A stretch of DNA of 5,118 nucleotides. It comes from a virus (Duplodnaviria; Heunggongvirae; Uroviricota; Caudoviricetes). The stretch spans positions 1-5,118 of IMG/VR virus record IMGVR_UViG_3300039366_000147. One strand, given 5' to 3'. The notes under the pieces are model-generated. The model was not told where the DNA came from, searched no databases, and saw only the letters and a list, made by a program, of their open reading frames with translations. How positions within the stretch are numbered: position 1 is the first letter of the stretch; each line of letters opens with the position of its first letter. The translations under genes were made by a program, and so were the position numbers. Shown one piece after another: positions 1 through 5,118 of this stretch.

Positions 1-644
1 GTATAGACACGAAAACCGCGCAGAAGGATAAGTTCGGCGCGGGTAAGAACGGTTTTACCCGTGGTAACCCCCAGACTGGCACGCCTGCCACCGATCTGGA
101 TGATGACTACTTTGATATGTTGCAGGAAGAACTCTGCAGCGTGGTGGAGGCATCCGGTGCCAGCCTGGAGAAGGCGCGGCACGACCAGTTGCTTACCGCG
201 CTTCGTGCGCTGCTGTTAAGCCGCAAGAATCCGTTTGGCGATATCAAATCGGATGGCACGGTGAAAACAGCTCTCGAAAACCTTGGTTTGGGAGAAGCGG
301 CGAAAAGGGATGTGGGTACAGGAGAAAATCAGATACCGGATATGTCAGCCTGGAAAAGAAATCCGAGTTCTAATCGCTGGAGAAAATTGCCTGATGGAAC
401 CATCATTCAAATGGGAATATCAGCATCAGGGCCATTAGGCTCACCTGTAAATATCACCCTGCCGATATCTTTCAGCAATACCAATTATTGTGTTGTTGCA
501 TCGTACGATAATGCACGGTCAGGTGTGTCAACAATGGTTAGTTTTGCAGCATTACCTGTTTCACCATCGCAATTTTCCCTGATGTCATCTGTGACTGAGC
601 AAGGAATAAATCCTTTTGCTTACTGGATTGCTTTTGGAGATTGA
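1..644 (+). CDS. Phage tail fibre protein, distal portion (5' end outside window; codons in phase from nt 3); the part after the crossover site is variable cassette 1
   Basis: Frame is open from the window edge to TGA at 642..644. It sits 3 nt upstream of a tail-fibre-assembly gene (GGAGA at 637..641, ATG at 648). The left crossover site lies in frame and encodes ENLGLGE. The gene-order logic is that of Mu S-U and e14 stf-tfa. Confidence 0.8.
271..296. repeat. Left crossover site of the invertible segment (gix/pix/hix-like, 26 bp)
   Basis: CTCTCGAAAACC-TT-GGTTTGGGAGAA. It matches the reverse complement of 2129..2154 at 21 of 26 positions, including a perfect 14-bp run (283..296 against 2129..2142). 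It has the AAACC-NN-GGTTT architecture I recall for Din-family sites. Confidence 0.7.
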
Positions 645-647
645 TAA

Positions 648-1067
648 ATGGACAGATACTTCTATTCACAAAAAGAAAATGGTTTTTTTACCGATTTAAA
701 TAAAGCACCTTCAGATGCTGTTGAGATAACCACGGATGAATGGCTATCACTACTGGATGGTCAGGATAATGGCATGAAAATAGTCAGCAATCAGGAGGGA
801 TATCCGGTTTTGACAGAGCAACCACCTTTATCAAAAGAAAACCTTATTGCATTGGCAGAGTTGAAAAAAGGAAAACTTATTAATGAAGCCAACGAGCACA
901 TGAACAGCAGGCAATGGCCTGGTAAAGCGGCTATTGGTCGTCTGAAAGGTGAGGAACTGGCGCAATATAATTTGTGGCTGGATTATCTGGACGCACTGGA
1001 GCTGGTCGATACTTCCAGTGCGCCAGATATTGAATGGCCTACGCCTCCGGCAGTTCAGGCCAGATGA
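648..1067 (+). CDS. Tail fibre assembly protein (Tfa/U-like chaperone)
   Basis: 139-aa ORF with the C-terminal motif DTSSAPDIEWP that I recognise from Tfa proteins. RBS GGAGA lies 6 nt upstream, directly coupled to the fibre gene. Confidence 0.8.
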   Translation: MDRYFYSQKENGFFTDLNKAPSDAVEITTDEWLSLLDGQDNGMKIVSNQEGYPVLTEQPPLSKENLIALAELKKGKLINEANEHMNSRQWPGKAAIGRLKGEELAQYNLWLDYLDALELVDTSSAPDIEWPTPPAVQAR

Positions 1068-1641
1068 TATCCGGCGCGGTGCTGGTATCTGTTACCGTCA
1101 CCGCGTCAATGTAATCCAGCACGGCGTTAAGTCGGGTTGTTTCTGCCTGCGTCAACTTCCGTCCGGCCTGCAATTTCAGTTGAATCAGACTAATGGAAGC
1201 CATTGCAGTATCAATCAGTGACTGACGTTGTGCTTCTGCCGCGTCTACTGCGGCGCTATGCTGTGCCTCGGTATCCGTCACCCATTTCTCACCATCCCAT
1301 TTATCGTATGGCGTTAACGGGGCGATAGTGGTTGTATTATCAGGGTAATCACCCGGAACTGTGATTTCTTTTGATTCTCCTGTTTCGGTGCTAAAGACGA
1401 TTTCACCGCGATGGTCTGGCACATATTCCCATGAGTTAAAATCTGCAGATCGGCAGATTGCATAACCAGCTTTGTATGCGCCTGGGGCATCTAAACAGGA
1501 ATATGCCGGAATGCCGACACCAATAGCAAGATATTCAGTTGAAGCTGAAATATATTCCCGACTCATGACATCAAAGTTATAAACAGTAATTTCTCCTGCC
1601 ATAGTGGCAATTAATTCACTGTTTAATTCTGCGTTATTCAT
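1039..1641 (-). CDS. Tail fibre assembly protein, second copy, for the alternative cassette
   Basis: 200-aa ORF ending in DTSTAPDIIWPELPEA, the same Tfa C-terminal motif. Its ATG (1641..1639) overlaps the stop of the upstream - strand fibre cassette by 1 nt. Its 3' end overlaps the + strand tfa by 29 nt. Confidence 0.8.
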   Translation of the reverse strand: MNNAELNSELIATMAGEITVYNFDVMSREYISASTEYLAIGVGIPAYSCLDAPGAYKAGYAICRSADFNSWEYVPDHRGEIVFSTETGESKEITVPGDYPDNTTTIAPLTPYDKWDGEKWVTDTEAQHSAAVDAAEAQRQSLIDTAMASISLIQLKLQAGRKLTQAETTRLNAVLDYIDAVTVTDTSTAPDIIWPELPEA

Positions 1642-2141
1642 TATGCAGCCCTCACGATATAGTTAAATGCAATATTCCGTGGACGGGTTTCATTTATCCC
1701 ATATGCTGTTGTTCTCTGATTCCCGACAAAATATCCATTTGGATTAGAAGATACAGAATAATCATCAAAATCAAGAGGGCTATCAGCACCCGGCGTCAGG
1801 CTTGCAATATATCCTCTTCCCATAACTTCTGATGCTGGTATTTCTTTTGTACGATAATCACTAACTCTGAAGAGCTGCCCTTGGTGGGTGTGTGATTCCA
1901 CTCCTCCATTCTGAAGACTTAGCAAGGCACGTACAGCATCAATACCACGCCCGTCATCCCAGCCACGAATAAACTCACCACGTAAATCAGGCAATTTATT
2001 TGTCGGATAAGCCTTTGCCAGTTCCGGGTATTCTTCAGCAGAAAAAGCGGCACCGTTGCATTCAGCCAGCCTGTTGGCGGAGTGGCTGAAGGCCACGGAA
2101 CAGGCACACCAACCGGTAATGCAGAGCCTTCTCCCAAACCA
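1641..2141 (-). pseudogene. Alternative tail-fibre distal cassette, promoterless, with an apparent -1 frameshift near 2060..2065
   Basis: Encodes a tail-collar-like motif (ECNGAAFSAEEYPELAKAYPTNKLPDLRGEFIRGWDDGRG) in the frame of the 189-aa ORF. The frame set by the crossover site is instead that of the 87-aa ORF (INVGLGEGSALPVGVPVPWPSATPPTGWL...), which stops at 1919. The two frames meet at TGGCTGAATGCAACGG. Confidence 0.6.
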
Positions 2142-2154
2142 ACGTTTATGAAAA
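2129..2154. repeat. Right crossover site of the invertible segment
   Basis: TTCTCCCAAACC-AA-CGTTTATGAAAA, about 55 bp upstream of the invertase ATG. It is the inverted partner of 271..296. Confidence 0.7.
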
Positions 2155-2208
2155 TGCAGAAATAACGAGCAAATGGCATCATTCCTGCTTTTGTCAGGGA
2201 GATCTACC

Positions 2209-2526
2209 ATGCTTATTGGCTATGTACGTGTGTCAACAAATGACCAGAACACAGATCTACAACGTAATGCGCTGAACTGTGCAGGATGCGAGCTGATTTT
2301 TGAAGACAAGATAAGCGGTACAAAGTCCGAAAGGCCGGGACTGAAAAAACTGCTCAGGACATTATCGGCAGGTGACACGCTGATTATCTGGAAACTGGAC
2401 TGGCTGGGATTATATAAAACCGCAGACACGTCGTATGCAAGAACGCGCTGCGGTTGGCTGGTAAAATTTTCGATAGTGCGAGTATTGAATGATTTCCAGC
2501 CGTTACAGATTTTACGTGCTAATTAG
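2209..2526 (+). pseudogene. Gin/Pin/Hin/Cin-family serine DNA invertase, truncated (family similarity ends at about codon 64)
   Basis: ATG at 2209 with GGGAGA RBS. The N-terminus MLIGYVRVSTNDQNTDLQRNAL...GDTLIIWKLD carries the catalytic-serine motif and closely matches my recollection of Pin/Gin. After WKLD (nt 2400) the frame continues 42 codons with unrelated sequence to TAG at 2524..2526. The resolvase core and helix-turn-helix are absent. Confidence 0.75.
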
Positions 2527-2732
2527 TGAACAAACCACTCGTCAGCAGACTCCCAGGTATCTTTCAGAGTCTCCTGCGGTGCGTGTAACAGAAAGCCCAT
2601 CATTGCTGGTGGCTTTTATGAGCACCTCCACATTGTCATAACGCTTACTGATGCGCCGAGTTAATTCTTTCTTTAACGCATCCACGGCACCGTTTGGCAT
2701 TTTTCTTTGGCTATGCAGATCTCAATGTACAT
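2523..2732 (-). pseudogene. DinI-family (SOS damage-inducible protein I-like) gene, apparently disrupted by two frame changes
   Basis: Three reading segments on the - strand resemble E. coli DinI as I recall it: [11 protein letters not shown], then in the -1 frame [42 protein letters not shown], then back in the first frame [15 protein letters not shown] followed by stop. The total length from ATG to TAA is 210 nt, which is in frame. Confidence 0.5.
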
Positions 2733-2737
2733 AAAAC

Positions 2738-2772
2738 CCCCTTGTTACTGTATGCGCACACAGTAACAAGGG
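2738..2772 (-). promoter_or_regulatory. Perfect 13-bp inverted repeat containing a CTGT-N8-ACAG LexA-box-like core (2748..2763); alternatively a hairpin terminator
   Basis: CCCTTGTTACTGT-(9 nt)-ACAGTAACAAGGG. It sits 5 nt upstream of the dinI-like ATG. On the - strand the stem is followed by GGTTTTAT. Confidence 0.4.
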
Positions 2773-2850
2773 AGCGTCTAAGTTGATCTTGCGGGTTGTA
2801 TAAGCTGGGATTTTTAATGGATTTTATCCTGATTATTTGGAGATAAAGTA

Positions 2851-2883
2851 CCTTAAAACCAGCATGAGAGACTGGTTTTAAGG
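2851..2883 (-). terminator. Perfect 12-bp stem, 9-nt loop hairpin downstream of the 437-aa ORF (possible terminator)
   Basis: CCTTAAAACCAG-CATGAGAGA-CTGGTTTTAAGG, about 85 nt 3' of the ORF stop on the - strand. The stem is AT-rich and there is no clean U-tract, so the assignment is weak. Confidence 0.3.
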
Positions 2884-2966
2884 AAAGAATTGAACCGATA
2901 ATGCTAAATGATATTGTAGTGCAACCTAGTTGGCTTGTTTATTTTTAATGATAAGTGAAAATAAAG

Positions 2967-4280
2967 CTAATCTATATCACTTAAAGTACCTTTAATTTCC
3001 CCTTGCTCAATATCCCCTAACCCAAGTTTACCTACTAATACATTACATTGCATGATGACTGAAACGGTCATATCTCGACCAGATACATCTTCCTCTTTAT
3101 AATGCTGTCCGCTTACATTTGCAGAAAGTTCAGCATAAAAACCATTATTAAAGTAGTATTGCTCAACAGTAATATCATCTATATTTTCAAAAATAGTGTC
3201 TGATTCTGCAATGGCACCTGAGACACCATCGCTATCAAAAGCATCAAATGGATTTTTTTCAAACTCCTCTCTGCATAACTCCGCAAGATGATCACCAGAA
3301 ATTAATTTAAATGGGATGTTGTCAAATAACATATCAAGATGATCAAAAATTAAATCTGCAGAAAAATCTTCATTGTCAGAGTTTTCTTCCAGCACTATTT
3401 GTTCAAGACGTTTGGCTAATTTGTCATCATAATAGACATATTTGACTTTGCTTAAAGTTTCATTATTGAAATTTTTGTCATCAAGAAGTTCATTAAAATC
3501 CGTATACCCAAAAAGTGAGGAGGCAATTAAACCTAATGTTTTAAGTGATACATGTATGTTGTCACTTCTGAGACTTTCATCTATTTTTAGCATGAGATAA
3601 TATGCAGATGGAAATCTATTGGATGCATGAACAGCTCTGGCTTTTGCACTATCGTTTTCAAATCTTATTTTTTCCAACTCTGCTTGTTTATTTTTTTTAT
3701 CTAGCTCAAGCTTTGATATTGATTCTTTGTTCTTTGCTGCTTGTGTTATAGCCTCTTGTTCTTCAGCTTTGCTTTTCGCTTCAATAGCCTTGACTTCCAG
3801 TCTCAAACTTCTTTGTCTTATATGTTCAAGTATTAATTTCCGTTTATCAATATCTTGCTGAACCAATTGTTCAAGAAATTGTTTGTTTGGATTAGTCCGT
3901 AATCTCTCTTTATTCAGTTCTTGTTGTTGCTTGATTTTTACTAATTCTATATCAATAGCCTGTTTATGTAGTTTCTTTTGAGATAAACTTTGTACTGTGT
4001 TAATAAAAAGAGAAAGCCATGGGAAAATAAATAAGTAAAAAGAGGCGGCAAGAAATGGGAAAACAAATAACTCATTCCACCCTAATATTGGCGTTCTTGA
4101 AATATACTCATAAAATAAGTTTATTCGCTCTGAAGTTTTTCCTTCACCCCAAAAAAGGAGAGATAGATGGTTCCAGTTACATATTAGCCATGAAAAAATA
4201 AAAGCGCCAACAAATGGATCGTTTATCTTGGTTTTAGCGTTTCCTGCTAACGAAGTAATTATATCATCTAAAAATTTCAT
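2967..4280 (-). CDS. Hypothetical protein, 437 aa: N-terminal membrane anchor, central coiled coil, acidic C-terminal domain; function unknown
   Basis: Longest ORF in the window, uninterrupted, in a visibly AT-rich block. GGTGA lies about 10 nt upstream of the ATG. Hydrophobic stretches at about residues 22-36 and 70-94, a K/E/Q-rich heptad-like region at about 100-210, and a D/E-rich C-terminal segment of about 220 aa. No family recognised. Confidence 0.75.
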   Translation of the reverse strand: MKFLDDIITSLAGNAKTKINDPFVGAFIFSWLICNWNHLSLLFWGEGKTSERINLFYEYISRTPILGWNELFVFPFLAASFYLFIFPWLSLFINTVQSLSQKKLHKQAIDIELVKIKQQQELNKERLRTNPNKQFLEQLVQQDIDKRKLILEHIRQRSLRLEVKAIEAKSKAEEQEAITQAAKNKESISKLELDKKNKQAELEKIRFENDSAKARAVHASNRFPSAYYLMLKIDESLRSDNIHVSLKTLGLIASSLFGYTDFNELLDDKNFNNETLSKVKYVYYDDKLAKRLEQIVLEENSDNEDFSADLIFDHLDMLFDNIPFKLISGDHLAELCREEFEKNPFDAFDSDGVSGAIAESDTIFENIDDITVEQYYFNNGFYAELSANVSGQHYKEEDVSGRDMTVSVIMQCNVLVGKLGLGDIEQGEIKGTLSDID

Positions 4281-4321
4281 TTTTTCAAAATCACCAATTG
4301 GTTATAATTAATATAATGGAT

Positions 4322-4349
4322 TGTGCAGTAAAATATAATTTACTGCACA
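4322..4349. promoter_or_regulatory. Perfect 11-bp inverted repeat with 6-bp AT spacer in the promoter region of the 437-aa ORF (candidate operator)
   Basis: TGTGCAGTAAA-ATATAA-TTTACTGCACA, 42-69 bp upstream of the ORF start codon. No adjacent T-tract on either strand, so it is not a terminator. Confidence 0.35.
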
Positions 4350-4992
4350 TCATTCTAGGTTTTTGCATAAAATGTTCAATTGTTTTCAAAGATAGCTCCT
4401 CAATTAATATATGACGACTTAAATATCACCATACTCTTGCTAATCATTGATTGCTTTTCAAGCGATAAACACCAAAAAATACCGTATAATATTCACTCAT
4501 TTTATCTGCGTAATCAACTCGGTCTGCAGCTGTTACACCTGAGCTTGTGAAACGTCAGAGTAATACGGTTTCTTTACGCATAGTATGCTGTTTATACAAT
4601 CTCCATGGGGAAGTTAATTGGTTATTAGGGGCACTTGTGTATAACGAACAACTAAAGATGACAAGCCATATGGTAAGTTGTATCCAGGCGGTTATTGAGA
4701 TGCTCTCTAATTATTAATGCAATGTCGACTTTGCGATATCTTCTTTCTTTGAGAATCGGGTTGCCGAATGCATGTGGTTGATCTTTGTGCTGTGTTTGTG
4801 TGGTGTATGATTTTTAATCGATTAATAATAAGAAATAATAGGGCTAAGATTGTTGTGTGTACAAATGGTTTTTGGTTACAAATACACCTACTGATCATGT
4901 TCTGCTATGCTCTGATACCTCCAAAATGTACAATCAGCGGCATGAATTTTTCTTTGTACATATGATTGTACATAATCAAAGAGACAACAATT

Positions 4993-5118
4993 ATGACAAG
5001 CCTTTTGGCCGCAGAGGTAGCGAAAAGAAGAACCTTTGCAATTATTTCTCACCCGGACGCCGGTAAGACTACCATCACCGAGAAGGTGCTGCTGTTCGGA
5101 CAGGCCATTCAGACCGCC
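4993..5118 (+). CDS. prfC: Peptide chain release factor 3 (RF3), N-terminal 42 codons; continues beyond the window
   Basis: Translation [42 protein letters not shown] contains the GTPase P-loop AGKT and matches the E. coli PrfC N-terminus apart from residues 3-8. AAAGAGA RBS lies 8 nt upstream. G+C rises sharply here. Confidence 0.9.

Follow-up and report, generated by a model that had tools for sequence, protein, structure and literature searches.

Prophage homologues of dinI are under LexA control, as shown experimentally for the Gifsy prophages of Salmonella (PMC3121763; PMC8072944). There, a LexA box immediately precedes the dinI homologue (Lemire et al. 2011, PMC3121763), and terminator-like palindromes have been noted upstream of the boxes (PMC3121763). 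Both the LexA control of phage dinI genes and the Gifsy palindromes are already known. The subject here is a disrupted dinI-family gene, and the palindrome immediately in front of it, in a 5,118-nucleotide (nt) stretch of DNA (IMG/VR virus record IMGVR_UViG_3300039366_000147, positions 1 to 5,118), which is called the window below. The locus is likely to be what remains of an SOS-regulated dinI module that lay at the right end of a prophage with a Mu/e14-like tail, beside prfC in Escherichia coli. The frameshifted dinI is itself already known, having been annotated by RefSeq. The only element that is even modestly new is an operator fused with a hairpin that would sequester the Shine-Dalgarno (SD) sequence, with hints of compensatory maintenance.

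The closest relatives are the canonical dinI modules of lambdoid and Mu-like coliphages and prophages, among them mEp460, cdtI, SKA5, Stx-converting phages and prfC-linked prophages such as GB089, with ~87% amino acid (aa) identity over the parts retained here. They share with this locus the 3' flank, the position at a prophage end after tail-fibre and invertase genes, and a proximal LexA box 13 nt from the start codon. However, in canonical copies the gene is intact (82 aa), a second LexA box lies in the spacer of a TTGACA-N17/18-TAAAAAT promoter and there is no stable hairpin, whereas the copy here has lost 39 nt in two deletions, its promoter and distal box (box 1) are gone and its remaining box (box 2) sits inside an 18-pair hairpin. 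The comparison with Gifsy is different again. There, the promoter and LexA box are separate from the terminator that precedes them, and the dinI-antirepressor operon is functional and drives prophage induction. Here, the terminator-like stem and the box form a single element, neither a promoter nor a following antirepressor gene is seen, and dinI is dead. The chromosomal DinI of E. coli (PDB 1GHH) is 46% identical to the translation stitched together from the three segments of the copy here but, unlike that copy, its gene is intact and SOS-inducible. The features that carry the argument are the following.

2523..2732, minus strand: dinI-family pseudogene of 210 nt (PF06183 match; RefSeq 'DinI-like family protein, frameshifted'; alignments to intact genes)
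2542..2700, minus strand: 52-aa internal open reading frame (ORF) holding the DinI middle segment, with an internal Met start and an out-of-frame TGA end (ORF list)
2698..2705, minus strand: junction of a 10-bp deletion, GA[AAAAATGACT]AAAATG in intact relatives and GAAAAATG here (DNA alignments)
2574..2576, minus strand: junction of a 29-bp deletion, CCG[CAGATAAGGATTCTGCAAAAACATTTGTT]CAGGAG in the GB089 relative and CCGCAGGAG here (DNA alignments)
2746..2765, no strand assigned: predicted LexA operator, TACTGTGTGCGCATACAGTA on the minus strand (heterology index 7.22; position of box 2 of phage dinI)
2736..2775, minus strand: extended hairpin with anti-SD arm GCUCCCUUGUUACUGU and SD arm ACAGUAACAAGGGGG, 18 pairs and a 4-nt loop
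2737..2743, minus strand: SD-like AAGGGGG, fully paired in the 3' arm (sequence; fold)

The dinI pseudogene and its two deletions

It is clear that the gene derives from the DinI family, as a preliminary description of this DNA had proposed. The stitched three-segment translation matches Pfam PF06183 with an E value of 3.8e-14 and 53.2 bits (cut-off 24.2), and the 52-aa ORF on its own matches positions 1-45 of the 63 positions of the profile (E 1.5e-10, 41.7 bits). The description had also stated that start and stop share a frame that the middle of the gene does not, and translation of the minus strand confirms this. A frame of 210 nt runs from the ATG at 2732 to the TAA at 2525..2523 and is interrupted by three stops, the DinI-like middle is read in another frame, and the C-terminal segment is back in the frame of the start and stop. 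What does not hold is the statement that the gene has the right overall length. Intact relatives have 82-83 aa (249-252 nt), and the copy here is 39 nt, or 13 codons, shorter. With three stops and 13 codons lost, there is no uninterrupted ORF of ~80 aa with the conserved C-terminal segment. Judged from its sequence, this copy is a pseudogene of the DinI family rather than a functional member, and presumably no functional DinI product is made.

The gene was aligned with the intact 249-nt genes of the E. coli prophages 2014C-3011 and GB089, with those of the phages mEp460, PhiR49_2, cdtI and SKA5, and with two sister lineages. Both frame changes turn out to be deletions. The first, of 10 bp, is flanked by two AAAATG direct repeats, which makes its exact breakpoint ambiguous inside the repeat. 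At the protein level it removes KMT before the internal Met. The preliminary description had placed the first switch at an A-run, and the run is indeed present, at 2698..2705 rather than 2699..2706. The second deletion removes 29 bp (a block that can also be written CCG[CAGATAAGG...TTTGTT]CAGGAG, with CAG microhomology on its flanks) and takes away ~10 residues, DKDSAKTFVQ, at the start of the C-terminal region and ahead of the conserved tail. Both losses were located on E. coli DinI (PDB 1GHH) by protein alignment. Because 10 and 29 bp add up to 39 nt, the end of the gene returns to its starting frame, which is an arithmetic coincidence. Deletions between short direct repeats are typical of replication slippage or illegitimate recombination.

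The disrupted gene is not confined to the window. Among 5426 complete E. coli genomes, 8 carry positions 2400..2900 at 99.4-100% identity, and the stretch is, going by these matches, E. coli chromosome. In all, 18 further copies, from public E. coli assemblies and one metagenome contig, have the identical sequence. The same positions are identical in nine other loci (L001 and L011-L018, some of them the same assembly read twice), and the upstream haplotype is also found in one metagenome contig. The VG35A2/EC05 lineage has the same two deletions and differs by 3 single-nucleotide polymorphisms.

Decay, sequencing error at homopolymers and recoding had all been offered as explanations of the frame changes. 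Decay fits, the shifts being deletions of 10 and 29 bp, and the other two are rejected. What if a functional DinI variant of 69 aa were made by programmed recoding, with a -1 shift at GAA AAA U and a +1 shift near GCA GGA G? In this hypothetical scenario it would make sense that start and stop share a frame, that the first shift lies on an A-run and that the two-frame pattern is fixed in a lineage. However, both shift sites are deletion scars with direct repeats, and dinI occupies one frame in 56/56 viral loci and in all other dinI loci examined (the canonical relatives and the sister loci L023-25), as it does in L026-28, where that frame ends at a premature stop. Neither a slippery site in the zero frame, from which an X XXY YYZ heptamer is absent, nor a two-frame arrangement conserved in homologues is found, the product would be 13 residues short and miss, among others, the beginning of the C-terminal region, and neighbouring genes show the same deletional decay. 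Recoding is extremely improbable. A sequencing or assembly error at homopolymers in an intact gene would also agree with a first shift located in an A-run. However, 8 complete genomes of varied laboratory and host origin share the sequence exactly, as do further draft and metagenome contigs, and the differences are of 10 and 29 bp, not 1 bp. The identical copies, along with the same deletions in VG35A2/EC05, exclude such an error for all practical purposes. Perhaps, then, it is the 52-aa ORF that is expressed, giving a shortened DinI-like peptide whose activity is residual or new. This ORF is open, starts with ATG and has a significant PF06183 match, but the promoter scan found no promoter for it, a convincing SD sequence before its ATG is absent, and the peptide would have neither the first strand nor any of WESADEWFV, the conserved C-terminal segment. 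The C-terminal helix of DinI reportedly carries the RecA-interacting acidic residues. An active peptide of this kind is very unlikely.

An apparent pair of compensating frameshifts can therefore be nothing but two microhomology deletions that sum to a multiple of three, and the case is a caution for recoding screens. Otherwise the locus is a textbook example of a prophage end decaying by deletion, and it is of little importance except for its correct annotation.

The LexA box and the missing promoter

The preliminary description had pointed to a palindrome with canonical SOS-box spacing (TACTGT-N8-ACAGTA) in front of the gene. The pattern CTGT-N8-ACAG does occur there, once in the window against 0.04 occurrences expected by chance, and the box is also the only CTG-N10-CAG in the window. 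It was scored with a heterology index (HI) of the Lewis type, an additive symmetric matrix recovered by regression on 140 sequence/value pairs with a maximum residual of 0.0002. The source of the matrix was Table S1 in the supplement of PMC12527982, which lists candidate SOS boxes of E. coli K-12 with their HI values. In that study the low-HI (binding) peak lies at 7.34 and the background peak at 22.3, and the low-index Mean Shift cluster of Table S1 holds sites up to HI 13.6 (PMC12527982). At HI 7.22 the box falls outside the background range and within that of experimentally bound sites. Random CTG-N10-CAG sites of the window's base composition have a median HI of 19.8, and only 0.0008 sites with HI <=7.22 are expected per stretch. 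The Gifsy dinI boxes have HI values of 3.9-5.3 (PMC8072944). The recA operator (TACTGTATGAGCATACAGTA), near which, at pncC/recA, BLAST gave a side-match, scores 4.31. The box here differs from it at two spacer positions only, and its higher value is due to its GC-rich spacer. Two further boxes of the published table, for which only the sequences are given there, score 6.98 and 8.32. We take the former to be the uvrA/ssb box and the latter to be the second lexA box.

The position of the box is equally telling. Two boxes are present in every copy among 56 dinI loci in IMG/VR (19 upstream haplotypes): box 1, at a distance of 40-42 nt from the ATG and within the spacer of the TTGACA-N17/18-TAAAAAT promoter, and box 2, at a distance of 12-14 nt and with HI values of 5.2-10.0. 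The box here is 13 nt from the ATG, as in 17/19 phage haplotypes, and homology to canonical dinI 5' regions extends through it. The core of the palindrome is, by alignment, the proximal LexA operator (box 2) of phage dinI genes, and its score predicts that it is binding-competent.

What is missing is a promoter. Three features upstream of the hairpin are relevant here.

2851..2883, minus strand: first terminator-like hairpin downstream of the 437-aa gene (scan; in the sister lineage a clear T-run follows)
2967..4280, minus strand: 437-aa cargo gene, upstream of and co-oriented with dinI (ORF; RefSeq hypothetical protein)
4771..4843, minus strand: second, decayed dinI promoter/operator region of the canonical type, adjoining prfC (alignment to GB089, EC416 and mEp460)

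Upstream of box 2 there is no alignment to the canonical relatives, and unrelated DNA has replaced the -10, the -35 and box 1. A consensus promoter scan found no sigma-70-like site within or just upstream of the box, and so no repressible promoter that overlaps or adjoins it. Promoter scans likewise found no promoter-like site between the first terminator and the hairpin, either here or in the sister lineage. The canonical promoter is detected in GB089 and annotated in mEp460. The proposal that the palindrome is a LexA operator therefore survives in part: the score and position of the box fit, and the promoter to be repressed is absent. LexA probably still binds the DNA of the box, with no promoter to repress. 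In other words, this is an orphan high-scoring site without a promoter, inside a hairpin, and genome-wide predictors of SOS boxes or of prophage inducibility that rely on HI would wrongly call the prophage remnant SOS-responsive.

The sole sigma-70-like site in 2400..3100 is TAAACA-17-TACAAT (2913..2941, minus strand), placed just past the stop codon of the 437-aa gene and before the first terminator-like hairpin. The site is conserved in the sister, where it reads TATACA-17-TACAAT. The decayed copy at 4771..4843 keeps TTAAAAAT, ACAAACACAG and an ATG at the right spacing, and its -35 hexamer and CTGT half-sites are lost. The 437-aa cassette is thus enclosed by two dinI 5' regions, which suggests insertion into, or recombination between, dinI leaders.

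The hairpin and its possible history

The perfect 13-bp inverted repeat that had been described is present and extends to 17+17 nt (2739..2755 and 2756..2772) with one mismatch. The DNA to the left of the box (GCTCCCTTGT) is complementary to that on its right (ACAAGGGGG), which is the SD region, and AAGGGGG does lie in the stem as had been reported. RNA folding of the minus-strand transcript, which the preliminary description had suggested, gives a stable hairpin of -28 to -32 kcal/mol (z -5.6 to -6.5). In contrast, the leaders of canonical and phage dinI genes fold at only -5.8 to -11.5 kcal/mol and have no such hairpin. In the terminator consensus scan the structure has 18 pairs (7 G-C), a 4-nt loop and a tail of only four consecutive U followed by AUG. 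The sole DNA mismatch of the outer stem becomes a U-G wobble, and does so on the dinI-sense RNA only. The hairpin occurs only in E. coli lineages with the 437-aa cargo gene upstream. Based on its predicted fold, it would most likely act as a terminator and as a lock on the ribosome-binding site. It had also been suggested that the palindrome terminates the 437-aa gene. The stem is indeed terminator-like, but the hairpin at 2851..2883 is nearer to that gene than the palindrome is.

The informative comparison is with two E. coli relatives of the 437-aa protein (88-89% identity), both found at the same prfC site with dinI and the invertase gene following. These sister prophage ends (L023-L028) share with the window the order prfC, 437-aa gene, terminator, hairpin, dinI and invertase, as well as the anti-SD/SD hairpin. 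They differ in that the invertase is intact, dinI is either intact (83 aa, L023-25) or truncated by a nonsense mutation (L026-28), 16 extra nt lie upstream of the hairpin and the canonical LexA box is replaced by CTG-N12-CAG. The sister hairpin, CTCCTTaTCACTG-N12-CAGTGAcAAGGAG, folds at -20.4 kcal/mol. Between it and the hairpin of the window, two stem positions are changed on both arms (T-A vs C-G next to CTG, and C-G vs U-A in the anti-SD/SD part), while both the U-tract and the pairing of anti-SD with SD persist. The window has kept the ancestral spacing and half-sites. In L026-L028 (4595..4813), dinI is cut to 72 aa by a change from TGG to TAG behind the same kind of hairpin, and this inactivation is, by alignment, independent of the two deletions here.

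How might such an element have arisen? In the ancestral module, dinI would have stood behind an SOS-repressed promoter that held two LexA boxes. In a lineage with the co-oriented 437-aa cargo gene upstream, the promoter part would have been lost, and once the cargo gene lay there the palindromic box 2 would have been extended into an anti-SD/SD stem, either because its own flank was copied by fold-back or template switching, or through selection. On the minus-strand RNA this stem could serve as a second terminator after 2851..2883 and stop read-through from the cargo gene, and it could at the same time lock the ribosome-binding site of dinI. Silencing of dinI by the hairpin would explain the two independent decays. 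Perhaps, then, the hairpin is an SD-sequestering terminator that grew out of a LexA operator and was kept by compensatory changes on both arms, so that a DNA repressor site and an RNA insulator and translational lock are combined in one 40-nt element. This idea is tentative and may well be wrong. If true, it would illustrate how a transcription-factor palindrome is converted into an RNA regulatory structure, and a functional hairpin would be a small example of an operator palindrome turned into a terminator and ribosome-binding-site lock.

Several observations do not fit well with the reading of the locus given here. The U-tract is short (UUUU, then AUGU). The nearer hairpin at 2851..2883 already follows the 437-aa gene, which makes the palindrome at most a second terminator. 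The CTG-N12-CAG spacing of the sister means that the property shared by the lineages is the hairpin and not LexA binding, and it leaves the role of LexA in this sublineage uncertain. In addition, the sister keeps an intact 83-aa dinI behind the same type of hairpin and without a recognisable promoter. Either the consensus scan missed a promoter there or the copy is silent and not yet decayed. Since there are just two hairpin haplotypes, the changes on both arms could also reflect homogenisation of a quasi-palindrome rather than selection on RNA structure. Lastly, both the function of the hairpin and the binding of LexA at this locus are predictions from sequence.

A different reading is that the palindrome was created or kept by a purely mutational process, in which fold-back priming or template switching homogenises quasi-palindromes, and has no RNA-structure function. 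The LexA box, itself palindromic, can seed fold-back copying. Over 13-15 nt the left arm repeats the right flank in inverted form, beyond which it meets unrelated DNA, and the locus is full of other scars of replication slippage. However, the U-G wobble at the sole outer-stem mismatch, seen on the dinI-sense RNA only, and the retention in both lineages of the anti-SD/SD pairing and of the U-tract after the stem are suggestive of the opposite, as far as two haplotypes can be. A purely mutational origin is unlikely, though it has a real chance of being correct. Another possibility is that the palindrome is only the terminator of the 437-aa cargo cassette and that its resemblance to a LexA box is coincidental. 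This would be in keeping with the terminator-like stem, with its restriction to loci that have the 437-aa gene upstream and with the non-canonical CTG-N12-CAG of the sister. It is improbable nevertheless. The box is in register with the ATG (13 nt) as in phage dinI genes, homology to the canonical 5' regions passes through it and its HI of 7.22 has a chance expectation of 0.0008. Moreover, dinI is absent after the 437-aa homologues of Enterobacter, Yersinia and Klebsiella (flanks that were checked for dinI and not for the palindrome), and the extended palindrome is found in 0 viral contigs and, in genome contigs, only as 3 matches in unrelated taxa.

These counts come from pattern scans. Neither the right flank with the ATG (ACAGTAACAAGGGGGTTTTATG) nor the extended palindrome (TTGTTACTGT-N8-ACAGTAACAA) occurs in viral contigs. 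The matches to the extended palindrome in genome contigs belong to Flavobacteriaceae, an archaeon and Clostridia and were taken as chance. Metagenome contigs gave 2 matches (L021 and L022), of which L022 is identical to the window. The scans of viral, genome and metagenome contigs revealed no more distant bearer of this upstream type. BLAST searches of E. coli genomes and phages with the 86-nt hairpin region and with 2725..2966 returned only the same 8 genomes and weak canonical dinI matches. The sister upstream type is absent from the complete E. coli genome collection, which was searched with the sister upstream region. The search for more hairpin haplotypes found no dinI after the 437-aa homologues in other genera (Enterobacter, Yersinia, Klebsiella), and Rfam has no match to the whole window at E <= 1.

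The cargo gene and the prophage end

The 437-aa gene is AT-rich, and its product has no assignment in Pfam, PADLOC or NCBIfam. More than 120 homologues (40-89% identity, most of them full-length and 435-460 aa long) occur in Enterobacter, Yersinia, Vibrio, Pseudomonas, Providencia and other hosts. The gene is mobile cargo, often found in SOS- or defence-type neighbourhoods. An Enterobacter homologue at a prophage end is flanked by a SRAP (YedK-like) gene on one side and umuDC-like genes on the other, and a Yersinia homologue lies near TrbL and a TIR-domain gene. Some sources label the homologues 'TolA'.

In strain FAM21845 the region adjoins prfC and forms the right end of a prophage whose baseplate and tail-fibre genes are Mu/e14-like. 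Two further features lie on the other side of dinI.

2209..2409, plus strand: truncated Pin-type DNA invertase gene (RefSeq recombinase 'missing C-terminus'; alignment to the intact 185-aa sister gene)
2411..2522, minus strand: conserved 3' flank of the phage dinI module, abutting the truncated invertase (homology with dinI loci of phages and prophages)

By comparison with the intact sister gene, a deletion has taken ~115 C-terminal codons (~345 nt) from the invertase gene, homology with phage and prophage dinI loci begins at ~2411-2417, and 16 nt are missing directly upstream of the hairpin relative to the sister lineage. The neighbouring genes show, as far as these alignments indicate, deletional decay of the same type as dinI.

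The segment with the tail-fibre and tail-fibre-assembly (Tfa) genes (117..2210) is found in both orientations among otherwise identical assemblies of the loci L011-L018, for example in L011 as against L012 and L016. Its cassette variants also differ, with a Tfa of 139, 142 or 146 aa. As the adjacent invertase is cut to ~67 codons, the two orientations either are an old polymorphism or come from a different Pin-type invertase that acts in trans.

E. coli EC416 (L020, 3128..4755) carries another prophage end at this prfC site. Its dinI is intact, and behind it come a hypothetical gene, a fragment of a reverse transcriptase and a gene with a TIR domain. The prophage end near dinI looks like a hotspot for cargo or defence genes. 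E. coli 2014C-3011 (L002, 3629..3805) has an intact dinI module at a prophage end with a different integration site, where the module comes after NleG/DUF1076 effector genes and adjoins an annotated 177-nt ssrA (tmRNA) feature.

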